Positions 1 to 62,682 of a stretch of DNA of 64,000 nucleotides are shown here, in pieces (the stretch's first letter is position 1; each line of letters begins with the position of its first letter). Origin of the DNA: an uncultured Chloroflexota bacterium. Its GTDB lineage: Bacteria > Chloroflexota > UBA11872 > VXNJ01. Location: contig CAJWLF010000014.1 of assembly GCA_913043205.1 (NCBI GenBank), positions 226-64,225 on the forward strand, in the 5' to 3' direction. The position numbers and the translations under genes are program-made. The notes below the pieces were generated by a model that had not been told where the DNA came from, searched no databases, and saw only the letters and a list, made by a program, of their open reading frames with translations.

Positions 1-922
1 GCCCCGCAATATCAAAGGCAGTCCCATGAGCAGGAGTTGTTATCGGAAATGGTAGCCCTCCATGCACCGTAACACCACGGTCAAAACCCATCAGTTTTAA
101 AGCAATCTGTCCTTGGTCATGATACATCGCTACGACCCCATCAACCTCGCCAGCTCGAGCCTTCAGGAAAATCGTATCCGATGGCATCGGTCCACATACA
201 TCAATCCCAGACGACCTTAATTTAGCTAAAGCAGGATGAATTATTTCGATCTCCTCATCACCAAAACTACCACCCTCTCCGGCATGCGGGTTCAAAGCCG
301 CAACAGCTATTCGAGGGCTATCTATACCAGATGCTTTCAGTGTCTTATTCAACAGCAGTACCGCTTTGCAGATCCCCTCCTCAGTAACTGAGCAAGCCAC
401 ATCCCGCAGAGCCATATGACTTGTCACACGACTCACCCATAACCCATCCAGAGTATTCAGTTCTGTTACAAAGCCATTAACCTTCAGTTTTTCTGCCATG
501 TAATGCAGTTCATCAGCGTGTCCCAATCCAGCCATGTGCATAGCTTCTTTGTTAAACGGAGCAAACACCAGACCATCAATAATGCTGTCCTGTAACAAGC
601 CAAGGCTCACATCTAAGGTGGCTATTACCGATCGACCAGATGCCTTGGTAGATTTGCCGATATCAACTTCGTAAGGCTGAATACTTTCCGTGGGATACCA
701 GGGCAGGCCTGATTTTCCCTGCCAATCATCGAATTCGAGATTACATTCTTCCAATTTAATTTCGACTGTTGCCTGCTTTGCCCCCTTCATAAACACGTGC
801 CTGTCCCCCACCAACAAAACATCGGCTTGATTCAGTATTTCTTCATTGGCAGAAATCCTGGCAACAAGTTCAGGACCAATACCACTAGGATCCCCTGGGA
901 TGATTGCTAAACGCGGCTTCAA
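1..922 (-). CDS. pdxA: 4-hydroxythreonine-4-phosphate dehydrogenase PdxA family. The gene is partial and its C-terminus lies beyond the window start.
   Basis: Minus-strand translation from TTG at 922 gives LKPRLAIIPGDPSGIGPELVARI..., the classic PdxA N-terminus. A GGAGG RBS lies 6 nt upstream. The ORF runs off the window start, so it is absent from the ORF track. Confidence 0.8.
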   Translation of the reverse strand, partial: MKPRLAIIPGDPSGIGPELVARISANEEILNQADVLLVGDRHVFMKGAKQATVEIKLEECNLEFDDWQGKSGLPWYPTESIQPYEVDIGKSTKASGRSVIATLDVSLGLLQDSIIDGLVFAPFNKEAMHMAGLGHADELHYMAEKLKVNGFVTELNTLDGLWVSRVTSHMALRDVACSVTEEGICKAVLLLNKTLKASGIDSPRIAVAALNPHAGEGGSFGDEEIEIIHPALAKLRSSGIDVCGPMPSDTIFLKARAGEVDGVVAMYHDQGQIALKLMGFDRGVTVHGGLPFPITTPAHGTAFDIAG

Positions 923-1097
923 ATTAGCACCTCCTACAGAATCTGATATGCAATACCGAACTAAATGCAGAAATTCTTACAATCAAAGATAAATAAAGCT
1001 TCGATAAGTAGCCGAAACTACTTAAGGAACTATAGTCTGTACTTAAATACTGTGGATGCCAATGGCAAATCGATAATTACATAGCAGGAAGTGTGTT

Positions 1098-2201
1098 TTG
1101 AAAATAACCAACATCAAGGTGGAAATGTTCGAGTGGACTTCGGAAGGATGGCAGACAGGCGAAGGAATAGCGTTTGGTGACACTCGCCAATTAGGTGTTG
1201 TAGCAGTGGAAACGGATGAAGGGATTACGGGACATTCGTTCTTAGGGTCTTCAAGTGTAGGGGCCGAACACTTTACCCCAGGGTTGATCCAGTTCCTTAA
1301 ACCCATGCTCATGGGTGCCAACCCACAAGAGATCGGTGCACTATGGGGGTCAATGTGGCATACGAGAAAACGTGTTTCCCCGTATGCTATCGGCGCTTTA
1401 GACATATGCCTATGGGACATAAATGGGAAAATTTCAGAGCAGCCAGTACACAGGCTACTAGGTACCTGCAAAAACTCTGTTCCTGTCTATTCAAGCACTG
1501 CTCACCACGAAACCAATGAAGCTTATGTTGAAGAAGCCTTACGGATGAAACACAGCGGACTAACTGCCCACAAGATTCATCCACATGGCGATCCGATAAA
1601 AGACGTTGAGCTTTGCCAGGATATAAGGGAAGCAGTAGGCGATGATATAACACTAATGCTGGATGCAATGTGGGCTTATCGTTACGCAGATGCACTTCAA
1701 GTTGGTCGCGCAATCGAAGCTCTAAATTTTTATTGGTATGAAGACCCTCTTGCACAGGAAGATATCTACAATTACAAAAAATTACATCAGAAGCTTGATA
1801 TTCAACTAATGTCCACCGAATATCTACCAGGTCAGTTCTACAGCATGGCTGAATGGGTCACTGAATACGCTACAGATATTTTGAGAGGCGACGTAGCTAT
1901 TACTGGAGGCATTACCCCATTAATTCGACTCGGCCACCTCGCCGAGGCATTCAACATGCAATGTGAGATCCACCACGGTGGTAACTCCCTCAATAATGTA
2001 GCCAATCTCCATGTAACTATGGCCATACCAAACTGTGAATTCTTTGAATTCTTCCCATGTACGGGCGCAAATATGTTCGGACTAGTGGACGATATTGAGT
2101 GGGATAATGAGGGTATGGTGCATGCGCCAACCAAACCTGGACTCGGCTATCAAATAGATTGGGATCTTCTGAAAAGCACTCAATTAGGAACAATAGAATA
2201 G
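1098..2201 (+). CDS. Enolase-superfamily enzyme (mandelate racemase / muconate lactonising enzyme family, sugar-acid dehydratase-like)
   Basis: 367 aa ORF with an MR/MLE-like N-terminal capping domain and barrel domain (..LDAMWAY..YWYEDPL..). Probable TTG start preceded by AGGAAG. Confidence 0.7.
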   Translation: MKITNIKVEMFEWTSEGWQTGEGIAFGDTRQLGVVAVETDEGITGHSFLGSSSVGAEHFTPGLIQFLKPMLMGANPQEIGALWGSMWHTRKRVSPYAIGALDICLWDINGKISEQPVHRLLGTCKNSVPVYSSTAHHETNEAYVEEALRMKHSGLTAHKIHPHGDPIKDVELCQDIREAVGDDITLMLDAMWAYRYADALQVGRAIEALNFYWYEDPLAQEDIYNYKKLHQKLDIQLMSTEYLPGQFYSMAEWVTEYATDILRGDVAITGGITPLIRLGHLAEAFNMQCEIHHGGNSLNNVANLHVTMAIPNCEFFEFFPCTGANMFGLVDDIEWDNEGMVHAPTKPGLGYQIDWDLLKSTQLGTIE

Positions 2202-3772: not shown

Positions 3773-4852
3773 GTGAAGTACCTTCGTATGAAGTATGCGA
3801 AATCCGAACACTTACTAAATAAACAAATCTCCCCCCTGCAGACAGGCCAGCCAGTCTTTGCGAAATACGAAATAGTTGGAGGGAACGAAGACACGAACTT
3901 TCTTGATTGTATTGCTCCCAGTGATCTCAAATCCGAACCAATCTTCTGGTATGAGCCTACAAACCGAGACTTTGTTGAAATTTGCTCCGACTTAGCAAAG
4001 TGCGCCGATATCAATTTGGCATGGTTGGCACATCCAGGAAGTACCAAGACGTCCGGATATCAATCCACCGTTCAAACTCTATTACGGTTAGCAAAGAAAT
4101 GGGGAAGCTTAGGATTTGACAACCAAATGAAGGAAAGCAAGCAGGCAGATCAGATTAATATGTTGAATTCAATTTGGCCAGATTATGCCAAAAACATCCC
4201 AGCGTCTCACGATCCTGCAATCTGGATTACGGGACATGCTCGAAATGTAGATTTCATTCTGGAGTGTCTAGCGGTAGCAGCTAGAAGCTGGACTTATGAC
4301 AATATTGAATTAAATCAACAATTGGCTCATCTCTTGTTCCGCTTTGAAACAGGGATATCCCTCCCATTATCCACCTTCGACACACACGATTCATGGAACG
4401 TCAGAAACGCTCACTTTCTACGATTAGACAACACTATCCCTGCCCCCACTTATAACTATGCCGATGGTGTGCAGATTCGGAATGGACTAACCATCCCTCT
4501 CGACTTTGAAGACCCGGAAGACCAAGCTCTCATGCTTATTAGACACATTATTGACAGCAATTTGGCCACAGCGCAAGTGACAGCTAGGGGAATTCGTTAC
4601 ACCAGCCTCATGCAAACAATTTATAGTCACTTAGCAGGGATATACAGTGATGCCGTTGACAATATGTGGTGGGGGCCGGAAAAACCGGATAAGACTTGGG
4701 TGCGCCACTGCCATGAGTGCTCACACGTATTTGTTTCCGTATCGCGTCGACAGAAATTCTGCCCATCTTTGATACGCGGTGCCCGATCTACCTGTAACAA
4801 CACATTCAACAAACGCAGAACCCGCGCAAGAAATAGAAAAGAGACCAGTTAA
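3773..4852 (+). CDS. CGNR-like C4 zinc-finger protein, paralogue of the island gene 14353..15369
   Basis: C-terminus CHECSHVFVSVSRRQKFC-x10-CNNTFNKRRTR resembles the CGNR zinc-finger pattern (C-x2-C..F..S..RR..C...C.N...N.R). The central region aligns with the island paralogue (WG.LGF and GH.R.VD.IL motifs). Confidence 0.55.
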   Translation: MKYLRMKYAKSEHLLNKQISPLQTGQPVFAKYEIVGGNEDTNFLDCIAPSDLKSEPIFWYEPTNRDFVEICSDLAKCADINLAWLAHPGSTKTSGYQSTVQTLLRLAKKWGSLGFDNQMKESKQADQINMLNSIWPDYAKNIPASHDPAIWITGHARNVDFILECLAVAARSWTYDNIELNQQLAHLLFRFETGISLPLSTFDTHDSWNVRNAHFLRLDNTIPAPTYNYADGVQIRNGLTIPLDFEDPEDQALMLIRHIIDSNLATAQVTARGIRYTSLMQTIYSHLAGIYSDAVDNMWWGPEKPDKTWVRHCHECSHVFVSVSRRQKFCPSLIRGARSTCNNTFNKRRTRARNRKETS

Positions 4853-6044: not shown

Positions 6045-6186
6045 AACGAGTTATTTACCTGTTTTCAGGCGTGATGCAGAGACTAATAATCAGGTCTGTT
6101 TTGCGATTTTGAACCTGTGGCGGAGACGCATGCGAGTAGAACGCACCTGCCCTCTTCATAAGACGGCACATCGGATTTGAAGTCCG
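6045..6186. repeat. Left island boundary direct repeat (attR-like). It contains a displaced 3' fragment of tRNA-Sec plus 72 bp of flank.
   Basis: 142 bp nearly identical to 17494..17635, with one visible mismatch in the T-loop (gagtAgaac vs gagtCgaac). 6118..6186 corresponds to the tRNA CCA end through the anticodon stem on the minus strand. Confidence 0.85.
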
Positions 6187-6415
6187 TTCAAAGGGGCTTT
6201 TTACTGCACCGTGCTGCACTGTAAAGGCCCTCTTCCCCTGTAGCTCTACCCCTTAGGATCAGTAGTGCACTGTCGTTGCACCCGACTGCACTGCTCAAAG
6301 TTGGGGCAAAAGTTGGGGCAAAGCCCTAGGTCTATAGAAATTCGGGTAAAGGGTTTAACCAGATCGCCGCTCGGGCTATATATCTAGCTTAGGTGTCGAG
6401 AAAGCAAAACCAAAA

Positions 6416-6470
6416 ACAGGGCACCCCCCAAAAACAAAATTAGGTCTAAAATAGCTTTACAGATGTCCAG
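6416..6470 (+). promoter_or_regulatory. Copy a of the recurring island intergenic module (variant lacking the GCGATGCGTGGAG head)
   Basis: cagggcaccccccaaaaacaaaattaggtctaaaatagctttacagatgtc, immediately upstream of the 6487 gene. It matches copies at 8346, 10649 and 11601. Confidence 0.5.
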
Positions 6471-6486
6471 CAGGGATGGCAGATAG

Positions 6487-7449
6487 ATGACGTTATATAA
6501 AGTTTCAAAACAAGGTCTTTCCGAAGTCAATAGGGATAGGTTTGCTACTGAGCTTGAGATACAACAGCTGGTAGAAACCAACGTCGATTCCATATTTAAC
6601 CTAGAGTTGATCTCTAGCGAATTTATGATCGGTGACTTTCGCTTGGACTCCCTCTGTTGGGATGAAGAAGCAAAAGCCTTTGTGGTTATCGAGTACAAGC
6701 GTGGTAGTAGCTACTCTGTGATTGACCAAGGTTATTCATATTTATCGACCATGCTGAATAACAAAGCGGAGTTTATTCTTGAGTACAACGAGAAAATGGA
6801 CACTTCGCTAAAACGCAACCAAGTTGATTGGACTCAATCAAGAGTCATATTTGTAGCTCCAACATTTAATTCCTATCAGAAGAACAGCGTTAACTTTAAG
6901 GACGTGCCTTTTGAGCTTTGGGAGATTAAGAGGTTTGACGGAGACCTTGTCTCACTTGAGCAGCATGTTTCCAGTTCCAGTGAAAGTATTGCCGCAGTAG
7001 AGCGTGGTAGCACGGCTGTCTCTAAAGTCAGCGCAGAGGTAAAACAATACGATGAAAGCTATCACTTGGAAAAGACTAGCGACCAAATTAAGCAGCTGTG
7101 GAGTGAGCTATGTTTACGCCTAAATGAACTCGAAGGTACAACCCTGTCATTTAGAAAGCGAGCGATCAGTCTAAAGACAGAGAACAACACTGTGGTTGTG
7201 AGTTTCAATCTTAGGAAGTCCTATATCAGGACTAGTATCCATAGAGGAAGTATTTATCCTGACGGTACTAAAACAGGGCAGTACGGTTGGTTCACCTTGG
7301 ATGATCCTAAGGGTGTGTGCCACGAAACTAAAAAATGGTACATGAACTCGCATGACATCGTTTATTACCGCTTTGAGATAAAGACTGTAGAAGAGATCGA
7401 TTACACAATGCTGTTGATAAACCAAAAACACCGATCTGTTTTGAGTTAA
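6487..7449 (+). CDS. PD-(D/E)xK nuclease-fold protein (NucS/DUF91-like N-terminal nuclease motif) with an uncharacterised C-terminal domain. It is a candidate defence gene.
   Basis: GDFRLDSLCWDEEAKAFVVIEYKRG...VIDQGYSYL matches the D..(D/E)xK / EhK-RG motif of NucS-like RecB-family nucleases. Located inside the island and A+T-rich. Confidence 0.55.
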   Translation: MTLYKVSKQGLSEVNRDRFATELEIQQLVETNVDSIFNLELISSEFMIGDFRLDSLCWDEEAKAFVVIEYKRGSSYSVIDQGYSYLSTMLNNKAEFILEYNEKMDTSLKRNQVDWTQSRVIFVAPTFNSYQKNSVNFKDVPFELWEIKRFDGDLVSLEQHVSSSSESIAAVERGSTAVSKVSAEVKQYDESYHLEKTSDQIKQLWSELCLRLNELEGTTLSFRKRAISLKTENNTVVVSFNLRKSYIRTSIHRGSIYPDGTKTGQYGWFTLDDPKGVCHETKKWYMNSHDIVYYRFEIKTVEEIDYTMLLINQKHRSVLS

Positions 7450-7470
7450 GAATTACCTTGAGCAGGGGCA

Positions 7471-8346
7471 ATGAGAGTTTCTAAAGACGAATATATCCTG
7501 AGAAACCTCTCGAAAATCAGGCATAAAAAATGGGAACTGTTTGTTATTACCAGAATAATTCATTTACTTAATGATCCCGATATTGAATTTGTCTGTCAGC
7601 AACTAATTAGATCTCGAAATGGAAAGCGTTATTTGACGGACTTATGTTTTCCATCGCTCAAGCTTTACTATGAAATTGATGAGCTTCAGCATGCCTCAGA
7701 ACCCCACCGAATAACTGATCAAATTCGGCAAAGAGAAATAGTCGATGCGACAGATTTCATCGAAAAGCGAATACAGGTCTACGACACACATCGCAAGGAT
7801 CGGGATTTAGATCAGATAACCAAAGAAGTCGATCAGTTTGTTGCGTATGTAAGACGACGAAAAGAAGAGCTTGTGTCAGAAGGTGAATTTACACCATGGA
7901 ATTACGAGACTAGATTCGACCCAGCTACGCACATCAAAAGAGGCTTCATCGATGTAAAAGATAATGTCATGTTTCTTAACCATCGAGATGCAATGAGGTG
8001 TTTTGGATATGAGGGTGGGCACTTTCAGAGGGCGTTTTGGAGGATCCCTAACAGTAACAACAAAGCAATTTGGTTCCCAAAGCTCTATGAAAATAACGAA
8101 TGGATTAATTACCTTAGTGACGATTCCAAGAAGATATTTATGAAGGAAAAGACGGGTGCAAACTTGGACACCCTCTTAGGGCCGCAAGAAGAGTGGGAAG
8201 CGTTAGTTTTTGCCCACTACAAAGACCATTTGGGACAGATCGTGTACAAGTTTCTCGGTGAATTCCATGATTCTTTGGAAGAATCCACTTGTTATGAGAG
8301 AGTGTTTGTCAGGCGGAAATCAAAGGTTAATCTCGGGGAGTTTTAG
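7471..8346 (+). CDS. Hypothetical protein with a possible restriction-endonuclease-like D-x(n)-EIDE-Q motif. It is the partner of the upstream nuclease gene.
   Basis: 291 aa, with a 21 bp gap after the upstream gene, so probably co-transcribed. RYLTDLCFPSLKLYYEIDELQH is suggestive but not diagnostic of a BglII/BamHI-type PD-(D/E)x(K/Q) site. Confidence 0.4.
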   Translation: MRVSKDEYILRNLSKIRHKKWELFVITRIIHLLNDPDIEFVCQQLIRSRNGKRYLTDLCFPSLKLYYEIDELQHASEPHRITDQIRQREIVDATDFIEKRIQVYDTHRKDRDLDQITKEVDQFVAYVRRRKEELVSEGEFTPWNYETRFDPATHIKRGFIDVKDNVMFLNHRDAMRCFGYEGGHFQRAFWRIPNSNNKAIWFPKLYENNEWINYLSDDSKKIFMKEKTGANLDTLLGPQEEWEALVFAHYKDHLGQIVYKFLGEFHDSLEESTCYERVFVRRKSKVNLGEF

Positions 8347-8416
8347 GGCGATGCGTGGAGATTGAGGGTATACCCCCCAAAAAACAAAAAGTCCTTAAAA
8401 TAGCTTTACAGATGTC
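8346..8416 (+). promoter_or_regulatory. Copy b of the recurring island intergenic module, with the palindrome GGGTATACCC at 8366..8375
   Basis: gggcgatgcgtggagattgagggtataccccccaaaaaacaaaaagtccttaaaatagctttacagatgtc directly follows the stop of gene 7471..8346 and precedes gene 8438. Confidence 0.55.
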
Positions 8417-8437
8417 GAGCTTTAGGGGGTTGGTATC

Positions 8438-9100
8438 TTGAGCAGCACAGATCAGCTTATCGTTTTTGGAGTTATGGTAGTTGCGATTCTCTCCTTTTTT
8501 TTGCCCCTCGTTTTGCTAAAAGGGAAACGTGAAAAAGAAGAAGAAGAAGAGCGTCGTAAAAAAGAAGAAGAAGAGCGTATTGAATTATGCGACGCTACCA
8601 TTCACATCCGTCAAGAATCTCAACTATGGAAATGTACTAATTGCGGTGCAGAGATGGCTAACGCCAGAAAGTTTTGCACCCAGTGTGGTACCAAACGATT
8701 TATCTCTCCAGTGCGACCAATCGAATGTCAAAATTGCAATGCGCCCCTAGATCCAAAATGGGACTTTTGTGGAGACTGTGGCGAAACGATAGGCATGATT
8801 AATCCTGATGAGAAACCCCCTTCACCTAATCCGATAAGTGATCCTTTTGTCAGTCAGCAAACAGGACAAAGTAGTTCAGCAACAACACCAGTAGCAACTC
8901 AAAGCAAAGAAGGTCGTCCGAGTGCTTTTTATGCCCTTTGGTTTGGGGTTGTTGGTGGGGTTGTAGCATTAGCTGTCACCCAAAATCCAAACTTGCCTGC
9001 TGGTCAATTACCAGTGCTGGATGGAATCGTGGGGTTTGCGCTTTGGTTTTTTGTTTCGTGGGGGATCATTGCTGCAATTAGGGCGATGCGTGGAGATTGA
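8438..9100 (+). CDS. Membrane protein with an N-terminal TM helix, a KE-rich linker, two zinc-ribbon motifs and a C-terminal hydrophobic domain
   Basis: CTNCGAEMANARKFCTQCGTKR and CQNCNAPLDPKWDFCGDCGE are double zinc-ribbon motifs. Hydrophobic segments lie at both ends. Its 3' end encodes IRAMRGD* using the module head sequence (gggcgatgcgtggagattga at 9081..9100). Confidence 0.55.
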   Translation: MSSTDQLIVFGVMVVAILSFFLPLVLLKGKREKEEEEERRKKEEEERIELCDATIHIRQESQLWKCTNCGAEMANARKFCTQCGTKRFISPVRPIECQNCNAPLDPKWDFCGDCGETIGMINPDEKPPSPNPISDPFVSQQTGQSSSATTPVATQSKEGRPSAFYALWFGVVGGVVALAVTQNPNLPAGQLPVLDGIVGFALWFFVSWGIIAAIRAMRGD

Positions 9101-9119
9101 AAAACATTGATGTTTTAGT

Positions 9120-17279: not shown

Positions 17280-17493
17280 GCGTCACCTCTATATTCATTG
17301 ATGTATCTTTTATCAATACAGGTCTCATTAATTCCTCTATCAATTAATATAGGAATATATCGATCCCATCCACACGAGTTTTGTGTCGTTATTAGAGCGT
17401 ATATAACATTGAGATCTCTCTCTCGTGAGGTCTGAAAATATTGGGAGTAAATACCTAAATCAGAAGTCGAAGTTGGGGCATAAGTTGGGGCAG

Positions 17494-17635
17494 ACGAGTT
17501 ATTTACCTGTTTTCAGGCGTGATGCAGAGACTAATAATCAGGTCTGTTTTGCGATTTTGAACCTGTGGCGGAGACGCATGCGAGTCGAACGCACCTGCCC
17601 TCTTCATAAGACGGCACATCGGATTTGAAGTCCGT
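17494..17635. repeat. Right island boundary direct repeat (attL-like). It is the island-derived 3' part of the reconstituted tRNA-Sec plus 72 bp.
   Basis: Identical, apart from one mismatch, to 6045..6186. Sequences diverge immediately after gaagtccg on both sides. Confidence 0.85.
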
Positions 17636-17662
17636 GGGGACCACCGGGTCCCATGCATCTCC
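17566..17662 (-). tRNA. selC: tRNA-Sec (selenocysteine tRNA, anticodon UCA) with an encoded CCA
   Basis: The minus-strand sequence is GGAGATGC-AT-GGGACC-CGGT-GGTCCC-..ACGGA-CTTCAAA-TCCGA-(long variable arm)-GTGCG-TTCGACT-CGCAT-GCGTCTCC-GCCA. It has an 8 bp acceptor stem, a 6 bp D-stem with a 4 nt loop, and U33-UCA-A37. The GGACTTCAAATCC and TTCGACTC blocks match E. coli selC. Confidence 0.75.
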
Positions 17663-54820: not shown

Positions 54821-54905
54821 TTTCTCATCGTATCAATTGGTATATTGCAGAATACCGCCAAACATCACTGCCAAGATTGTAACCGCAATTCATGTTATTT
54901 AACCT

Positions 54906-55307
54906 CTATACAAAACAAAGCTGTTCTTCCTCATATTCACCATTCCCAATACTGAACAGTCTTATCTCTGGATCATTCATGTCCTCTAGCGACACTATCA
55001 TCATAAGCACTAAACCAATCTTCACTTCACGTATATCGGTTGCAGATGGAATCGCCTCACTATTTGGATGCGAATGAAAAAACCCAATATCATCCAAGCC
55101 ACCTTCGTATATCTGCGCAAAAGCTTGATATTCCTCAGCCGGATCCATTCGATACAACACCGGACTGCTCTCAAGATTTTTCACAGGGAAAATACGTGTC
55201 ACTTCCTCTCCTGAATCGCCTGCTAATACGCCACAAGCCTCGTTCGGCAATACCGATTTGCAGTATGCAATTATTTCATCAGCAAGCTCACGTGAAATCG
55301 ATAGCAA
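54906..55307 (-). CDS. Mov34/MPN/JAMM-family metalloprotease (Mec+-like)
   Basis: JAMM motif E...HSHPNSEAIPSATD. Confidence 0.8.
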   Translation of the reverse strand: MLSISRELADEIIAYCKSVLPNEACGVLAGDSGEEVTRIFPVKNLESSPVLYRMDPAEEYQAFAQIYEGGLDDIGFFHSHPNSEAIPSATDIREVKIGLVLMMIVSLEDMNDPEIRLFSIGNGEYEEEQLCFV

Positions 55308-55349
55308 TTCACTTCCATCCCTTCAATCATAACGACCCCTAAGAAAAAG

Positions 55350-55378
55350 GTAGCAGTCTTACCCATTCGACTGCTAAA
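55350..55378. promoter_or_regulatory. CIRCE-like inverted repeat (TAGCAGTC-N10-GACTGCTAA) upstream of groEL
   Basis: Perfect 8 bp inverted repeat resembling the HrcA operator consensus TTAGCACTC-N9-GAGTGCTAA. It lies about 160 bp upstream of the groEL start. Confidence 0.4.
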
Positions 55379-55536
55379 ATGCTGGCCGGCCCGCAGTCTA
55401 AAGCTGGAGCCTTTGGGGTGGTAGTGCATTATGCCACGTTGTGTAAGCAGCGAACAGAGTGCAGCCGCCTTAGGAATTAAACAATTTAGTGAACAACATG
55501 ATGTTTGCGCACGAGCGCACCACATGAGGAGCTGAA

Positions 55537-57177
55537 ATGGCAAAGCAGGTAGCGCTTGACGCCGATGCACGCGGCAAACTTATTGAAGGTATCGACACTG
55601 TTGCAAATGCAGTGAAAACCACTTTGGGTCCCAAAGGACGCAATGTGGCGTTAGGGAAAAAATACGGTGGACCCACAGTAACCCACGATGGTGTTACTGT
55701 GGCCAAAGAGATTGAACTAGAGGAACCTTTTGCGAATATGGGGGCCCAGTTAATCAAAGAGGCAGCCAGCAAGACCAATGATATTGCGGGTGACGGTACC
55801 ACTACAGCCACAGTACTCGCCCAATCCATATTAAAAGAGGGGCTGAAGAACGTGGCTGCTGGAGCCAACCCAATGATTGTGAAAAGAGGCATCCAGCAAG
55901 GCGTAGACGCTTTGGTTGATGACCTGAAAGGGCAGGCTCGCCAGATAAAAACCAAAGAAGAAATTGCCCAGATCGCCGCTATATCAGCTGCTGACGTAGA
56001 AATAGGCGACATGATCGCAAAGGTCATGGATAAGGTAGGGAAAGATGGTGTTATCACGGTCGAAGAATCCAAAGGGATCGAACTTGAAGACGCCTACGTA
56101 GAAGGAATGCAGTTTGACCGAGGCTATCTTTCCCCATATTTTGTGACTGACCAAGAACGCATGGAAGCTTCGATCGAAGACCCGTACGTGTTAATTACAG
56201 ACGGTAAGATTTCTGCAGTAGCAGACATACTGCCAACCCTCGAGAAAGTCACGCAAGCCGGCAAGAAAGAGTTTGTTGTAATAGCCGAGGACATAGAAGG
56301 TGAAGCTCTAGCCACCTTAGTTGTTAACAAACTTAGAGGGGTCCTCAACTGCTTGGCAGTAAAGGCCCCCGGTTACGGCGACCGACGAAAAGAGATGCTC
56401 CAAGATGTGGCGATTATTACAGGGGGAACGGTTATCTCTGAAGATATGGGCCGTAAACTAGACAGCGTCATCTTAGAAGATCTTGGACAGTCAAGAAGAG
56501 TAGTCGCAACCAAGGATGACACCACTATAGTGGAAGGATCTGGTACGGAAGCCGCTCGTCAGGGTCGTATCAGTCAGCTCGACGGGCAAATACGAGAAGC
56601 TACATCCGATTATGATCGTGAAAAGCTAGAGGAACGAAAAGCCAAATTGTCTGGTGGTGTGGCGATCATCAGAGTTGGTGCAGCAACGGAGACAGAACAG
56701 AAAGAAAAGCAACACCGGGTCGAAGATGCAATATCGGCTACCCAGGCAGCACTTGAAGAAGGTATTGTTGCCGGAGGTGGAGTAGCATTAGTAAATGCAG
56801 TTTCTGCCCTGGATGGTGTAGATGTCTCTGGGGATGAAGCTGCAGGACTACGCGCACTCAGAAGGGCTCTTGTAGAGCCTTTGAGCCACATATCTGAAAA
56901 TGCCGGATATGATGGTGGAGTAGTGGTACAAGAAGTACTTCGCCGACATGAATCAGAAGACAATGATTTTATTGGATTTAATGTGATGTCCGAAGACTAT
57001 GTCGACATGGTTCAAGCCGGAATCATCGACCCACTTAAGGTAACTAGATCGGCCCTAGAAAATGCTGCTTCAATAGCTAGCATGATCTTAACCACAGAAG
57101 CACTGATAGCAGATATCCCAGAGGAAGCTGATGCAGCAGCAGCAGCAGCAGCAGCTGGCGCTGGGATGGGTTATTAG
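55537..57177 (+). CDS. groL: Chaperonin GroEL (Cpn60)
   Basis: [39 protein letters not shown]... with a C-terminal [12 protein letters not shown] tail. No groES lies immediately upstream. Confidence 0.95.
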
Positions 57178-57224
57178 GCGGAGAGATACACCAATCCTAT
57201 AAAGTCTCGCTGCTAAGTAGCAAT

Positions 57225-57262
57225 AACAGGCAGCATCCGACACCCGTCGGATGCTGCCTGTT
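57225..57262. terminator. Strong bidirectional Rho-independent-type terminator hairpin
   Basis: Perfect 17 bp inverted repeat AACAGGCAGCATCCGAC-ACCC-GTCGGATGCTGCCTGTT followed by TTGTC. It lies between the convergent groEL and darA-like genes. Confidence 0.7.
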
Positions 57263-57326
57263 TGTCATCAAACACGGATTAGACAACACAGATACAGAGA
57301 GCTCACATCATCAGCAAACTATTGTC

Positions 57327-57611
57327 TTAAACCCTGGTAAATCGCGAAACTGGCAACACAAACACTGCGGATCCAGAGTCTGATTCTTCATCCGGACGCA
57401 CGTACGATTTTATTTTTTCGATAATTTGGTCAACTTGATCTGCTCGGGCCCCTATCAACACAGTGACATTACCACGCTTCAAAAAACCACCCGCTGAGTT
57501 AATACGCGTAACACGGAAACCATCTTCCAAAAGTGATGCCTCAACTGCATTTGCAGAACTATTAGGCACCACTGCCAAAACAAGCTTTTCATTCTCTGTG
57601 ATTTCAGTCAC
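57327..57611 (-). CDS. PII-like cyclic-di-AMP receptor family protein (DarA/PstA, DUF970)
   Basis: LVLAVVPNSSANAVEASLLEDGFRVTRINSAGGFLKRGNVTVLIGARADQVDQIIEKIK matches the DarA/YaaQ pattern. Confidence 0.6.
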   Translation of the reverse strand: MTEITENEKLVLAVVPNSSANAVEASLLEDGFRVTRINSAGGFLKRGNVTVLIGARADQVDQIIEKIKSYVRPDEESDSGSAVFVLPVSRFTRV

Positions 57612-57691
57612 CAGGATCCTCGTTTACCATTTCCTATGCATACGCACGGTATCACCGCTAATTTTGAAAGGTCAAGAATAGTCAATAAATG

Positions 57692-58918
57692 TTAATCAAT
57701 ACGTATTCGCCCATCTTTATCCAGAATGGACAAATTACTTGTTTTGAACAAGTCTGTATATTTCAGTGCGTTACCAGTACTAAGCAAAACCACTTTGTCG
57801 TCAGGCGATATCTGACGGTCGCTCATTAGCTTGGGCAAAGCAGCAAACATTGCTCCGGCTTCAGGGGCCACGAATACACCTTCAGTACTGGCTACAAGTT
57901 TCGTCATTTCAATTGTGTCCTCATCAGAAACTGCTATAGCATTGCCTTCGGTGGATCGAATGATCCGTAACAATAAACGATCAGCAAATGGCTTTGGTAC
58001 GCGCAAACCAGAAGATACTGTGCTGGCATCGATAATTGCTTCACACCCCTCTACACCCAGTTCAATGGAAGATACGACCGGCGCACAACCTTTAGCCTGT
58101 ACAGCTATCAGTTTCGGACGGTGACCGTTTATCCATCCCAACTGTTCAAGCTCGTCAAAAGCCTTCCATAATCCTATCATCCCTACGCCACCACCAGTTG
58201 GATAAAGAATCACATCCGGCAATTGCCAGTCGAATTGTTCCGCTATCTCAAAACCCATCGTCTTTTTACCCTCCACTCTATAGGGCTCTTTCAGTGTAGA
58301 AACTTCATACCATCCAAATTCCGAACAGGCCGCTCCAACAATAGTTCCCGCATCAGATATCAGGCCATCTACCAGATGGAGTTTTGCTCCACAGGCCGAA
58401 ACCTCTCTCATGTTTACTACTGGGGTGTCATCAGGCATTACTACATGCAATTCCAGGCCAGCCCGAGCACAATATGCAGCCCATGCGCTACCAGCATTAC
58501 CAGCAGTCGGCATCGCTAGTGTCTTTTCACCTAACTCCAACGCTCTGGCCACTCCTACCGCCGCCCCTCGTGCCTTAAAAGTCCCAGTTGGATTCAAACC
58601 CTCGTCTTTAATCCATAAGTGATGCAACCCAATCTGATCAGCATAGGTAGGAATCTCATATATAGAAGTTCCTCCCTCACCTAATGTGATTCTATTCATT
58701 GGATCTCTAATGGGAAGAATTTCAGCGTAACGCCATAAATCAGGAGACCTATCTTTCCAGTCAGATGGCTGCAAGTAATTTCCCAACTGACTTAAATCAT
58801 ACCGAGCCAATAGAGAAGAATTACATTCGGGGCATAAATTGGCACGGGTGTCAGCATCGACAGAACAATCGCACTCTGCACACTCCAAATGAGATAAGTA
58901 ACTTTTAATAACTTGCAA
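57692..58918 (-). CDS. thrC: Threonine synthase (PLP-dependent, with an N-terminal zinc ribbon)
   Basis: PLP-lysine motif TGTFKARG and an N-terminal CxxC...CxxC. Confidence 0.85.
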   Translation of the reverse strand: MQVIKSYLSHLECAECDCSVDADTRANLCPECNSSLLARYDLSQLGNYLQPSDWKDRSPDLWRYAEILPIRDPMNRITLGEGGTSIYEIPTYADQIGLHHLWIKDEGLNPTGTFKARGAAVGVARALELGEKTLAMPTAGNAGSAWAAYCARAGLELHVVMPDDTPVVNMREVSACGAKLHLVDGLISDAGTIVGAACSEFGWYEVSTLKEPYRVEGKKTMGFEIAEQFDWQLPDVILYPTGGGVGMIGLWKAFDELEQLGWINGHRPKLIAVQAKGCAPVVSSIELGVEGCEAIIDASTVSSGLRVPKPFADRLLLRIIRSTEGNAIAVSDEDTIEMTKLVASTEGVFVAPEAGAMFAALPKLMSDRQISPDDKVVLLSTGNALKYTDLFKTSNLSILDKDGRIRID

Positions 58919-59089
58919 TACTTGACCTTTCGAGATTAGGTTATGTAAACCGCAGTCTAATGTTGCTACCCGTCAACTCAATAATCCACTTCAGCAACAA
59001 TCCAACGCTATCATCATAACAATCGTGAATTGTTGGCACGGCTTCCAATAGGATAAAATCCCGACAACCGCTAGAGAGGATTATTAAGT

Positions 59090-59977
59090 GTGGGCCCGAG
59101 AGAGAGCGGTTCAACTGTGACTAATTTGCATAATACCAAAGCTCGTGTTTTACCTAGAGCTCTACTATTTGTCAGCGGATTTTCATTGGTTTTTGCGTTA
59201 GCAGGTACATCTGCTGGCCTAGCTGGGCGTCTACTACAAGATGCACAAACCTGGATCAATCCCTTAGCTGGCATACTATTATTATTGTTAGGTATACACA
59301 CCACTGGAATACCCAGAATTATAGCCCTGCGATTAGCAAAACAGGCAGGAACCAATAAGCGCAATTTCATAGCCATATTGTTTATCGGCTCTGTACAGGC
59401 TCTTTATCGAAACGTCCAAGTTGAATACCGTATTCGGAGATACAATCCTATCTCTTCCGTTGTTGTAGGCATAGCCTTTGCATTGAGCTGGACGCCATGT
59501 GTAGGATTCATTCTCGGCGGTATATTGACAGCAGCTTTCAATGCGAACAATTCACTCACTGCATTTTTTCTCTTGTTATCCTATTCTTTAGGCTTGGGAG
59601 TACCGTTTGTAATACTTGCTGTGTTGGTGGATCGCACTGAACATATAGTACGAAAGCTTAGTCGACACTCCCAAGTCATAAGCATAGCAAGTGGGGTCAT
59701 ACTTGCGAGTTTCGGAGCGATGGTTTTAGCGGACTCAACAGAACAACTCGCTAGATTTCTTGGAACACTTCCATTAATAGACGACTCATTTCTTGCCCAA
59801 CAAAGGGAAAGTGGGCTGGGGATAGGCTGGGTAATACCCTCATTTATAGCTGGTACTATTTCATTCCTATCACCATGTGTGTTGCCATTAGTGCCTGTCT
59901 ATTTAGCCCATTTAGCGGGCTCCATAATCAACAATGATCACAACAAGGTTCCTATGTCCAAGCAACTAAATACATAG
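59090..59977 (+). CDS. ccdA: CcdA/DsbD-family cytochrome c biogenesis thiol-disulfide transporter, with the Cys-motif order apparently permuted
   Basis: WTPCVGFILGGIL mid-protein and SFLSPCVLPLVPVYLAHLAG near the C-terminus. Canonical CcdA has the SPC motif first. GTG start. Confidence 0.65.
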   Translation: MGPRESGSTVTNLHNTKARVLPRALLFVSGFSLVFALAGTSAGLAGRLLQDAQTWINPLAGILLLLLGIHTTGIPRIIALRLAKQAGTNKRNFIAILFIGSVQALYRNVQVEYRIRRYNPISSVVVGIAFALSWTPCVGFILGGILTAAFNANNSLTAFFLLLSYSLGLGVPFVILAVLVDRTEHIVRKLSRHSQVISIASGVILASFGAMVLADSTEQLARFLGTLPLIDDSFLAQQRESGLGIGWVIPSFIAGTISFLSPCVLPLVPVYLAHLAGSIINNDHNKVPMSKQLNT

Positions 59978-60072
59978 GTAAAATAGAATATTAAACGAAC
60001 TTTGCCGTTAGAGTATTGGAAAGGCGAGCCCACGGACAGGCTCATAGATTATTGCTGTGGAGGATAGTTTAG

Positions 60073-61170
60073 TTGAGCGAATCGCTAGAAGATCTGAGAA
60101 ATGAAATAGATCAAGTCGACCATCAGATCGTTGAAGCTCTGAATAGCCGAGCACAACTATCTCAGCGTGTTGGACAATTCAAATCTGATAATGGAGATCC
60201 TGTTTTTGCTCCATCTAGAGAGGCAGGTGTGATCAAGCGCGCCATTGAGCTTAGTGATGGAACACTGCCTGATGACGTCATTGCAGACATATTTCGAAAG
60301 ATTATGGCTTCAAGCAGGGCTCTCCAGCGACTGATGCGGGTAGCTTATCTCGGCCCAGAACTAAGTTTCAGCCATAAGGCAGCAGGAGATATGTTCGATC
60401 AGGGGGGCGAGTATATGGCTGCCCGATCCATATCTGAAATATTTCGCCTTACCAGAAGTGGAGATGTTGAATACGGGGTGGTACCCATTGAAAACACCAT
60501 TGGTGGCACAGTCGGTGACTCGATAGACTCATTCGTAGAGGGCAACGTCGTAATAATTTCGGAGTTTTCCCTTCAGATTATCCATAACTTGATGTCGCAC
60601 TCAGATATAACCAATATACATACTGTGTACTCACACCCTCAAGCACTGGCACAGTGCAACGATTGGTTAAGCAAAAACTTACCTACTGCGCAGCGAGTCG
60701 AAGTAGCAAGTACATCGGCTGCCGCCATTAAGGCCGCCAATGAAGCCGGATCGGCAGCAATAGGTCTGGATACGGCTGCCAAGTCAAACAGTCTTAAGCT
60801 GATCAGACGAGGCATACAAGACGTAGACGAAAACTACACCCGATTCTTCCTAATTGGGCGCCAGCCAAACCCTCCTAGTGGAGATGATCAAACTGCAATA
60901 TGTTTTGCTGTAGCCGATCGTATCGGTGCACTTCACGACGTACTTGGGATAATGCGAAACCACCACATAAGCCTATCTAATATGCAATCCCGGCCAGCGC
61001 GTGGGCGCTCACAGGAACAAGCAGGAGATTATGTCTTTTATGCGGAATTTCCTGGACACGAAAAAGACAATGATATCGCGGACGCACTCAATCAAGTAAA
61101 GTCTTTGTGTACCATGACCAAGGTCCTAGGATCATGGCCTATCGATCGTTCACTGAATTCAATGCGATGA
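60073..61170 (+). CDS. pheA: Bifunctional chorismate mutase / prephenate dehydratase (P-protein) with a C-terminal ACT domain
   Basis: CM helix (LRNEIDQVDHQIVEALNSRAQLSQRVGQFK), PDT domain (VAYLGPELSFSHKAA) and ACT domain. Confidence 0.9.
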   Translation: MSESLEDLRNEIDQVDHQIVEALNSRAQLSQRVGQFKSDNGDPVFAPSREAGVIKRAIELSDGTLPDDVIADIFRKIMASSRALQRLMRVAYLGPELSFSHKAAGDMFDQGGEYMAARSISEIFRLTRSGDVEYGVVPIENTIGGTVGDSIDSFVEGNVVIISEFSLQIIHNLMSHSDITNIHTVYSHPQALAQCNDWLSKNLPTAQRVEVASTSAAAIKAANEAGSAAIGLDTAAKSNSLKLIRRGIQDVDENYTRFFLIGRQPNPPSGDDQTAICFAVADRIGALHDVLGIMRNHHISLSNMQSRPARGRSQEQAGDYVFYAEFPGHEKDNDIADALNQVKSLCTMTKVLGSWPIDRSLNSMR

Positions 61171-61216
61171 AACGACAAGTAATAGATCAAATCAAATCAC
61201 TCATAACCAGATCTCC

Positions 61217-61477
61217 GTGAAAATACTAATCGTATCCAGCCTAGTGTTGGCATTTGGGTTTATTGTTCATTCAGGATTTCGCCGCAGGTTATTGTGGTCG
61301 TTAAAGGTTACGGCGACAATATATGCGTTTTTCTTCGGACTACGCCTTGTCATTTTTCCATTATTCAGTTGGGACCCCGACGCATATTTAGCAGTTGGAA
61401 TCATATCTCTAGTGTGCGTATTGATATGGATAGGCTTGAAATGGCTCGTCGATAACAACTTGGCCTCAAAAAGATAG
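61217..61477 (+). CDS. Small hypothetical membrane protein
   Basis: 86 aa with three hydrophobic segments. Confidence 0.3.
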   Translation: MKILIVSSLVLAFGFIVHSGFRRRLLWSLKVTATIYAFFFGLRLVIFPLFSWDPDAYLAVGIISLVCVLIWIGLKWLVDNNLASKR

Positions 61478-61512
61478 CAATACTGTCTTAAATTCGTGAA
61501 TGGAGTTCACAT

Positions 61513-62682
61513 ATGGGATGGTCCGTCGTACGTCCGACAGGATTAACGCATCATCGCAAGGAATATTCGATCAAAGGATACACTCTTATTACTCCGTTAG
61601 CCGGTTACGCCACATATTTGCTTGATATGCAAGGCCATATTGTCCACGAATGGAAACATAATTTCATTCTACCCCTATTCGCCAAACTACTGCCGAATGG
61701 CAATTTGATGGTAATCGGTACACATAAATCACTTTCACCACCACACCAACCTTCGTCCGAAAGAACCTCACATTCCCTCGGGAATCATGTACGTCAACTT
61801 GGAGGCGCAGCCTCTACATTACAAGAATTAGATTGGGATGGAAATCTGATCTGGAGCTATGACAACCCATTCATACATCACGATTTTTGCCGACTAGATA
61901 ACGGTAATACTCTGATCCCAGAATGGGTTGCGCTGCCTGATGAGATAAGCCACAAAGTTAAAGGAGGAAGAAAGCGCCCAAGAAAACAGATTCCGCCTAT
62001 GCTCGGCGATGACATTATAGAAGTGGACATGACTGGAAACACGATCTCCCGTTGGGAAACATGGAAATTGTTTGACCCCAGAAAAGACCCTATCTGTCCT
62101 CTCGAAAGTCGCTCAGAATGGACCCATCTAAACAGTGTTGATCAACAAAGCAACGGTGACATAGTGATTTCCTGCAGAATTAATCACAGAATCGCAATAA
62201 TTGATCGTCAATCAAAGCAATTCATATGGAAATATGGTGAAGGGATCTTAGGGCATCAGCATCATGCAACAGCACTAGCAAATGGAAATGTCCAGGTATT
62301 CGATAACGGCCTCCATACGCATGATCTTCCCACTTCTAGGGTCATAGAAATTAACCCTCGAACTAACGATATCGAATGGCAATATAATGCTGTTCCAAAA
62401 ACGCAGTTTTTCAGCGCACATTTATCAGGAGTTCAGAGGCTGGCACACGGTAATGTCCTTATATGTGAAGGTACAGGAGGAAGAATCTTAGAGATATCGC
62501 ATACTGGTGATCCCGTATGGGAGTGGATAAGTCCTTTCCTGCATGAAATGCCGAACTATGGAGTGATTAACTGGCTATACCGAGCATATAGATATAATTT
62601 GGATCATCCAGCATTTTCTGACAAATGTTTGGAAGGCCAGGCTTATGGGAACCTTAATAGAGAATACGGGTTGTCTAAATAG
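61513..62682 (+). CDS. Arylsulfotransferase (ASST) family beta-propeller protein
   Basis: Repeated ...HHD/HLNS...NG... blades typical of the aryl-sulfate sulfotransferase family. Confidence 0.6.
   Translation: MGWSVVRPTGLTHHRKEYSIKGYTLITPLAGYATYLLDMQGHIVHEWKHNFILPLFAKLLPNGNLMVIGTHKSLSPPHQPSSERTSHSLGNHVRQLGGAASTLQELDWDGNLIWSYDNPFIHHDFCRLDNGNTLIPEWVALPDEISHKVKGGRKRPRKQIPPMLGDDIIEVDMTGNTISRWETWKLFDPRKDPICPLESRSEWTHLNSVDQQSNGDIVISCRINHRIAIIDRQSKQFIWKYGEGILGHQHHATALANGNVQVFDNGLHTHDLPTSRVIEINPRTNDIEWQYNAVPKTQFFSAHLSGVQRLAHGNVLICEGTGGRILEISHTGDPVWEWISPFLHEMPNYGVINWLYRAYRYNLDHPAFSDKCLEGQAYGNLNREYGLSK

Follow-up and report, generated by a model that had tools for sequence, protein, structure and literature searches.

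Two adjacent nuclease genes on a marine selC island are probably independent single-gene defence modules

Two adjacent open reading frames (ORFs) in DNA of an uncultured Chloroflexota bacterium (contig CAJWLF010000014.1; the 64,000-nucleotide stretch analysed here is referred to as the window) form the first cargo at one end of an integrated genomic island. Gene 1 (6487..7449, + strand, 320 amino acids) and gene 2 (7471..8346, + strand, 291 amino acids) are tightly linked, with 21 bp between them, as described in an earlier note made from the sequence, and the peptide motifs quoted there are found in both translations, in residues that are invariant among homologues. That note suggested that the two genes could be an undescribed system and recognised no named defence system for either. 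We find that nuclease genes do lie on a mobile island, but that the novel two-gene system does not hold: the pair is not conserved elsewhere, and PADLOC has a full-length, single-gene model for each gene (PDC-S18 and mREase_II). We consider it probable that genes 1 and 2 are independent single-gene nuclease defence modules which sit side by side as cargo of a selC island. Both are fresh members of known families, and the sole real novelty is the function of PDC-S18/DUF5655; the main value of the finding is thus a correction.

Gene 2 is predicted by homology to encode a full-length PvuRts1I-family enzyme, a type IV restriction endonuclease dependent on 5-hydroxymethylcytosine (5hmC) or glucosyl-5hmC. 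Its protein matches Pfam PvuRts1I-like_N (PF21598; residues 7-122, 8.8e-21) and SRA (residues 153-278), both above the curated cut-offs, as well as PADLOC mREase_II over its whole length (1.7e-90). Among PDB sequences it matches PvuRts1I (4oky/4oq2; E 4e-68, residues 3-288) and AbaSI (E 9e-47, with the best aligned stretch at residues 69-267), and it is 44% identical to the crystallised PvuRts1I, end to end and collinear. The structure of PvuRts1I revealed an atypical PD-(D/E)XK site consisting of Glu20, Asp57 and Glu68-Ile-Asp70, with 'EID' in place of (D/E)XK; little or no activity was left after mutation of Glu20, Asp57 or Glu71, Lys17Ala retained residual activity at most, and Glu68Ala was insoluble and so not assayable (PMC4027163). 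Residues K19, E22, D57, E68, D70 and E71 of gene 2 align to PvuRts1I K17, E20, D57, E68, D70 and E71 and, together with H74, are invariant in an alignment of 39 homologues. The pocket of the PvuRts1I SRA domain is formed by Trp205, Pro207, Trp215, Asn217 and Glu228 (PMC4027163); W201, P203, K204, W211 and N213 of gene 2, which align to PvuRts1I W205, P207, R208, W215 and N217, are likewise invariant in the 39 homologues. The D-x(n)-EIDE motif, to which the earlier note had drawn attention as reminiscent of BglII/BamHI-type endonucleases, is therefore real, but it is the signature of PvuRts1I: all significant Pfam, PADLOC and PDB matches go to this family, and we reject the BglII/BamHI resemblance on that homology and on the published EID site (PMC4027163). 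Searches of NCBIfam and PHROGs gave no match for either protein.

By analogy with its characterised relatives, the SRA-like domain of gene 2 would flip 5hmC or glucosyl-5hmC into its pocket, and the N-terminal atypical PD-(D/E)XK domain, acting as a dimer, would cut both strands ~11-13 nt from the modified base. Such an enzyme would destroy phage DNA carrying hypermodified cytosine while host DNA is spared; as it would attack only modified DNA, no methyltransferase would be needed, and a Pfam scan of the island ORFs found none encoded there.

PvuRts1I-family genes are numerous in marine metagenomes: they make up 431 protein clusters, and among the matches listed over 264 loci were confirmed. 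Such abundance, together with the occurrence in a likely Chloroflexota host, may mean that marine bacteria are under pressure from phages whose cytosine is hydroxymethylated or glucosylated, and the marine enzymes could yield new tools for 5hmC mapping.

Gene 1 belongs to the family known as PDC-S18, COG3586 or 'DUF5655 protein'. It matches PADLOC PDC-S18 (PDLC04945), a single-gene model, at 2e-96, with residues 1-314 placed on profile positions 1-300 of 302. The family comprises more than 3,256 clusters, labelled 'DUF5655 domain-containing protein', 'predicted transport protein' or COG3586 in the source databases. As early as 2005, COG3586 had been assigned by prediction to the PD-(D/E)XK endonucleases and seen beside a type I restriction-modification (R-M) cluster (PMC1189080). 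The PDC systems of PADLOC are 145 untested candidates obtained by 'guilt-by-embedding' in type I R-M, BREX and DISARM loci (bioRxiv 10.1101/2024.01.29.577857). We found no characterisation of PDC-S18 or DUF5655 in the literature, including the searched supplements of the PDC paper.

An AlphaFold2 model of gene 1 built from the family alignment (pLDDT 89.4, pTM 0.81) has two domains joined by a helical linker, and a Foldseek search with this model ranked EndoMS and NucS first (E 1.6e-5 and 5e-5). The N-terminal domain has the core PD-(D/E)xK fold, with the E, D and (D/E)xK residues at their canonical positions, and E22, Q26, E30, D54 (in RLDSL), E69-x-K71 (in VIEYKRG) and Q81 (in VIDQG) are invariant among 45 family members. 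The NucS-like character that had been noticed in the N-terminal motif therefore stands at the level of the fold, while membership of the NucS family does not, since gene 1 lacks the N-terminal domain of NucS, has its domains in the opposite order and shows no sequence match that reaches threshold: in Pfam, NucS_C (15.7 bits, cut-off 24) and HSDR_N_2 are both sub-threshold, and neither phmmer nor family-profile searches of PDB sequences found NucS or any other meaningful match. The link of gene 1 to NucS is thus made through structure comparison only. As for the C-terminal domain, DUF5655 (PF18899) gave no match at E<=1 for gene 1 itself and was matched by 21 of 45 homologues (46-54% identity; best E 1.1e-8). 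When the 45 family members were scanned singly against Pfam, HSDR_N_2 was matched by 13, NucS_C by 11 and Shedu SduA_C by 7, beside the 21 with DUF5655.

We examined the genomic context of the gene 1 family in one genome per species, which yielded 80 loci (37-51% identity) from Proteobacteria, Bacteroidota, Verrucomicrobiota, Bacillota, Cloacimonadota and Fusobacteria. None of the 80 is from Chloroflexota, which fits horizontal acquisition of gene 1. Four ORFs on each side were clustered for the 75 usable loci, with identities confirmed by Pfam. HsdM/HsdS and/or HsdR are neighbours in 30 of these 75, nearly always on the same strand, and the commonest order has hsdM or hsdS immediately upstream of the gene 1 homologue and hsdR two ORFs downstream. 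Embedding of this kind, by which the PDC systems were defined (bioRxiv 10.1101/2024.01.29.577857), counts in favour of gene 1 as a candidate defence nuclease. Integrases, C5 and N6/N4 methyltransferases and a Schlafen/AlbA_2 protein also recur. Homologues are carried by 31 annotated plasmids, 15 of them in Acinetobacter, and phage records contributed three partial matches, to the nuclease domain alone. Plasmid pV_JAB144 of A. baumannii (record 54894..61529) has the arrangement hsdM-hsdS-DUF5655-hsdR, in which neighbouring genes lie 10-29 bp apart. Such a tight operon is found on clinical Acinetobacter plasmids of ~110 kb, which would make a convenient culturable system for studying PDC-S18 function.

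This context raises the possibility that gene 1 is an accessory or back-up part of type I R-M, a nuclease or sensor that works with HsdMSR or is restrained by it, and that the copy studied here is an orphan whose function has changed or been lost. PrrC, which is held in check by EcoprrI, would be the model for such a part, and embedded PrrC is a precedent (bioRxiv 10.1101/2024.01.29.577857); the 30 loci with a same-strand position between hsdS and hsdR, the tight spacing on the A. baumannii plasmid and the HSDR_N_2 matches of the nuclease domain are all consistent with it. However, in the remaining 45 of the 75 loci the four ORFs on either side include no type I gene, no island ORF has a Pfam match to type I R-M components, and the longest ORF at 17-64 kb of the window has <=627 amino acids, far under the ~1000 of HsdR. 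Gene 1 is under purifying selection although no type I R-M was found, and the embedding paper treats embedded genes as autonomous systems (bioRxiv 10.1101/2024.01.29.577857). We therefore regard an accessory role as unlikely, albeit the best surviving of the alternatives that we weighed.

An obligate and undescribed two-gene defence or toxin system, in which the two nucleases act together, is very improbable, and we regard it as largely refuted. It would account for the short gap, the shared strand, the lack of a predicted terminator-like site between the genes and the single pair of boundary modules (described below) that encloses both, and gene 2 is present on all eight contigs in which gene 1 has exactly this sequence. 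Nevertheless, when the pair was sought elsewhere, co-occurrence was not seen outside this island lineage. A gene 2 homologue was absent from all 80 gene 1 loci, which span several phyla (tblastn, +-10 kb). In the reverse direction, among 80 metagenomic loci with gene 2 homologues (51-100% identity), gene 1 was present only in two, both of them 100% identical copies of this island, and it was absent from all 28 other gene 2 loci for which 1 kb or more of upstream DNA was available. Moreover, each gene has its own single-gene PADLOC model, and enzymes of the PvuRts1I family work alone in vitro (PMC3627594).

The closest diverged homologue of gene 1 also speaks against an obligate pair. In this locus (L169; 82% amino acid identity, gene at 920..1903), positions 856..1993 align first to window positions 6422..7483 and then, after a jump, to 8338..8401. 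The junction reads ...GGGGCA ATG AGA GTT TCT AG followed directly by GGCGATGCGTGGAGATTGA..., so that the ribosome-binding region, start and first codons of gene 2 are joined to the sequence that follows its stop codon. Gene 2 has thus been cleanly deleted there while gene 1 is intact and under purifying selection. The deletion leaves a 10-codon remnant ORF (MRVSRAMRGD*). In the same locus a protease homologue lies upstream of the gene 1 homologue, which shows that cassette order differs between related elements. Genes 1 and 2 are linked only on this island lineage. Gene 1 provides a clean natural example of the autonomy of PDC-S18, as it lies outside an R-M operon, is under purifying selection and was kept when its neighbour was lost.

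It is scarcely credible that gene 1 has no part in defence and serves housekeeping DNA repair, cleaving mismatches or flaps as a nuclease of the NucS/EndoMS type. Its top structural matches are NucS and EndoMS and it has the weak Pfam match to NucS_C, but this match falls short of the cut-off, the family profile misses NucS, and the nuclease comes first in a protein that lacks the NucS N-terminal domain. The patchy phyletic spread of the family, its presence on plasmids, on islands and inside R-M operons, and the composition of gene 1, which is atypical for the host, argue against it as well. The label 'predicted transport protein', a JGI/IMG product name of several homologues, can be given practically no credence and was rejected on the structure model and its fold matches, as the confident two-domain model matches soluble nucleases and YdhG/YjbR, there is no long hydrophobic helix, the PD-(D/E)xK residues are invariant, and COG3586 had been predicted to be an endonuclease family (PMC1189080).

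The two domains of gene 1 offer a clue to its mode of action. Compared with the homologue in L169, the nuclease domain (residues 1-165) has 95% amino acid identity, a synonymous divergence (dS) of 0.16 and a dN/dS ratio of 0.15, while the DUF5655 domain (residues 191-320) has 68% identity, a dS of 1.19 and a dN/dS of 0.20. Both halves are under purifying selection, and their very different divergence suggests that the C-terminal domain was exchanged by recombination between the island of the window and L169. Across the family, mean pairwise identity is 66% in the N-terminal and 38% in the C-terminal domain. The C-terminal domain carries a net charge of +4 (family mean +3.3) and the nuclease domain one of -9. 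YjbR-type double-wing domains are predicted to bind DNA by analogy with T4 MotA, and in predicted defence genes they form fusions with GIY-YIG and PLD nucleases as well as with EVE readers of modified bases (PMC7641849); the N-terminal domain of McrB, which flips 5-methylcytosine, is a distant structural relative of YjbR (PMC3424535). The similarity of the gene 1 C-terminal domain to YdhG, YjbR and MotA is at the level of the fold, with 10-13% identity.

We propose that gene 1 is a stand-alone restriction-like nuclease with DUF5655 as its variable recognition module, a DNA-recognition or sensor domain that would direct or license cleavage of foreign DNA. As the island has no methyltransferase, self and non-self would have to be told apart through dependence on modification, through a phage-specific feature or through activation upon infection. 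Extending this to the whole family, we tentatively propose, as a possibility that we hold with less than even confidence, that PDC-S18/COG3586 proteins are an unrecognised and widespread group of stand-alone restriction-like nucleases in which a constant NucS-like domain is steered by a diversifying, recombination-exchanged DUF5655 reader; such a reader would sense either modified DNA or some feature of DNA that is specific to phages. If so, gene 1 would complement the 5hmC-specific PvuRts1I enzyme beside it and give wider coverage of phages with modified DNA. The combination of a conserved nuclease with a swapped DUF5655 domain offers a testable hypothesis for a domain of unknown function that is present in thousands of proteins.

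Several points weigh against our reading of the two genes. The gene 1 protein itself lies below the Pfam thresholds for DUF5655 and NucS_C, and since its own Pfam and PDB sequence searches miss, its domain assignments rest on the structure model and on family-level matches. No experiment has been reported on any PDC-S18 member, and the source paper calls the PDC set untested (bioRxiv 10.1101/2024.01.29.577857). Double-wing and frataxin-like folds also occur in proteins that do not bind DNA, such as type III secretion chaperones and CyaY, and DNA binding by the gene 1 C-terminal domain is for this reason putative. As for gene 2, the residues E228, Y237 and R244 that line the pocket of PvuRts1I have no clear equivalent, in a segment rich in indels; the preference for 5hmC, alpha-glucosyl-5hmC or beta-glucosyl-5hmC varies strongly from one characterised enzyme of the family to another (PMC3627594), and these two facts prevent a more exact prediction of the gene 2 substrate. 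Finally, the two genes, 21 bp apart, with no terminator predicted between them and a single pair of boundary modules around both, could still cooperate functionally on this particular island, where they are probably co-transcribed.

The mobile-island location that had been proposed for the genes is borne out by 142-bp direct repeats, their overlap with tRNA-Sec and a tyrosine integrase (Table 1). The island spans 11.45 kb and is integrated at tRNA-Sec (selC), with the right repeat copy overlapping the 3' end of the tRNA gene. One marine contig (L005, 1..5306) joins window positions 15594..17635 straight to 6046..9279 over a single repeat copy; this junction represents either an excised circle or a tandem duplication, the two being indistinguishable from this contig. 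With its integrase, flanking direct repeats that take in the 3' end of the tRNA gene and the junction contig (circle or tandem), the element qualifies as a tRNA-integrated island. The locus sits within a 188.9-kb Tara Oceans scaffold, and an identical locus occurs on several other marine contigs. The chromosomal neighbour panB has its nearest named relatives in Chloroflexi, Dehalococcoidia and Ktedonobacterales (51-58% identity), which, as evidence from one gene, makes an uncultured marine Chloroflexota the probable host. The A+T-richness ascribed to the genes in the earlier note holds, modestly, for the genes themselves (G+C content 0.414 for gene 1 and 0.404 for gene 2, vs a window mean of 0.454; 900-bp windows with values that low make up 3.3% and 0.9%, respectively), and not for the island overall, with a G+C content of 0.463.

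Table 1. Features of the island and of its first two cargo genes (window coordinates)
Feature	Position	Strand	Remarks
Left copy of the 142-bp direct repeat (att), with a duplicate of the tRNA-Sec 3' part	6046..6187	.	99.3% identical to 17494..17635
Upstream module copy (GGGCACCCCCCAAAAACAAAA ... TAAAATAGCTTTACAGATGTCCAGC), promoter-leader-like	6419..6471	+	ends 16 nt before the gene 1 ATG
Gene 1 residues 1-165, NucS-like PD-(D/E)xK nuclease domain (E22, D54, E69-x-K71, Q81)	6487..6981	+	
Gene 1 residues 191-320 and stop, predicted DUF5655 domain, YdhG/YjbR-like 'double-wing' fold, variable, probably recombination-exchanged	7057..7449	+	
Gene 2 residues 1-140, atypical PD-(D/E)XK domain (K19, E22, D57, E68-I-D70, E71)	7471..7890	+	Pfam and PDB matches
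Gene 2 residues 141-291 and stop, SRA-like modified-cytosine pocket domain	7891..8346	+	Pfam SRA 2.6e-26
Downstream module copy (GGCGATGCGTGGAGATTGA + GGGTATACCCCCCAAAAAACAAAA + TAAAATAGCTTTACAGATGTCGAGC)	8347..8420	+	begins right after the gene 2 stop codon
Further module sites	9082..9100, 10649..10716		
Island tyrosine integrase	15353..16483	+	Pfam Phage_integrase, Phage_int_SAM_3
Right copy of the 142-bp direct repeat (att)	17494..17635	.	one mismatch vs the left copy
tRNA-Sec (selC), integration target	17570..17662	-	ARAGORN; Rfam RF01852 70.4 bits, E 7e-13 (threshold 47 bits)

Both genes are bracketed by copies of an island-specific module of ~75 nt composed of motifs A, C and B. There are three copies of motif A (GGCGATGCGTGGAGAYTGA, 19 nt), at 8347, 9082 and 10649. 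Motif C (GGGTATACCCCCCAAAAAACAAAA) is found behind A at 8366 and 10668 and, in degenerate form, at 6419. Motif B (TAAAATAGCTTTACAGATGTC, 25 nt) lies at 6447 and 8396, and a degenerate version of it at ~10699..10716. Motif B sits 16-18 nt ahead of the start codons of gene 1 and of the gene for a zinc-ribbon protein, and motif A encodes the last codons (AMRGD*) of the zinc-ribbon ORF. In L169, where gene 2 is missing, the same module directly follows the gene 1 homologue, and another contig (L006, 1..3600) lacks window positions 9101..10648, which hold the protease gene, with endpoints exactly at two copies of motif A. No further copy was found in the window, in unrelated loci or in IMG/VR. The module looks like a shared promoter-leader that doubles as a site of homologous recombination and so shuffles the cargo. 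A structured element of the attC or riboswitch type was rejected: the copies fold no better than shuffled sequences (z -0.2 to -1.2, one +1.3), and Rfam matched tRNA-Sec only in the first 20 kb of the window.

Between the repeats, genes 1 and 2 are followed by a zinc-ribbon membrane protein, a trypsin-like protease and a PhyH-family protein, then by a Toprim/DUF3631 primase, a 97-amino-acid ORF, a helix-turn-helix regulator and a 338-amino-acid zinc-ribbon protein, and finally by the tyrosine integrase, a 102-amino-acid ORF and SSB. The membrane protein, the protease and the PhyH protein gave partial, domain-level PADLOC matches and no complete system. A replication-type module is formed by the Toprim and DUF3631 primase with, upstream of it, the 97-amino-acid ORF (11741..13784, - strand), which carries a CPAH...CHAGC motif that we read as a putative CHC2 (primase-type) zinc finger, and by SSB (16797..17279, - strand). 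In this respect the island recalls phage-satellite or integrative-mobilisable elements. None of its genes was recognised as serving packaging, capsid hijacking or conjugation. The protease ORF (9120..10637) contains tandem repeats rich in Pro, Thr and Ala, with a 12-nt periodicity, in two linkers (9301..9412 and 10093..10168), and these repeats fall where the match of L005 to the window ends. The 338-amino-acid zinc-ribbon protein (14353..15369), whose gene overlaps the integrase start, has a paralogue outside the island, beyond panB (3773..4852; 26% identity, E 8e-25), and both share a C-terminal CxxC...C...C zinc ribbon and a basic tail. Neither has a Pfam or PADLOC match, and the outer paralogue may be a remnant of another element.

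Placed beside known systems, the island differs from the selC islands of enterobacteria and from P4-like satellites in that capsid-hijacking or conjugation genes were not recognised on it, and like them it combines an integrase of the tyrosine type with a direct repeat in which the 3' end of the tRNA is duplicated, a primase with SSB, a helix-turn-helix regulator and defence genes at the distal end. Gene 2 has the domain order of the PvuRts1I/AbaSI family (type IV or IIM; PADLOC mREase_II), nuclease followed by SRA-like pocket, keeps both the catalytic set K/E/D/E/D/E and W, P, W and N of the pocket, and is likewise stand-alone, with no methyltransferase; it differs in its marine, probably Chloroflexota, host, in its selC-island site and at the pocket positions E228, Y237 and R244, which are not clearly conserved.

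Gene 1 shares with PADLOC PDC-S18 the full-length match to the hidden Markov model and the single-gene nature, and the type I R-M embedding seen in its family matches the way in which PDC systems were discovered; here, however, it is not embedded in R-M and lies on an integrative island beside a type IV enzyme. Membership of this candidate family says nothing about mechanism. From NucS/EndoMS gene 1 differs by the lack of the NucS N-terminal domain, the N-terminal placement of the nuclease, the sub-threshold Pfam match, the absence of sequence-profile similarity and the genomic context. Its C-terminal domain is alike in fold only to YjbR/MmcQ, YdhG and the C-terminal domain of T4 MotA, and the Pfam family matched by its homologues is DUF5655 and not PF04237; of these relatives in fold, MotA is the only one shown to bind DNA, and YjbR is predicted to do so. 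In the layout that we propose, gene 1 resembles its neighbour gene 2, with the nuclease first and the reader second, and would follow the domain logic of FokI, while the DUF5655 reader would be exchanged in a manner similar to the target-recognition domains of HsdS and the sensor domains of type IV enzymes.

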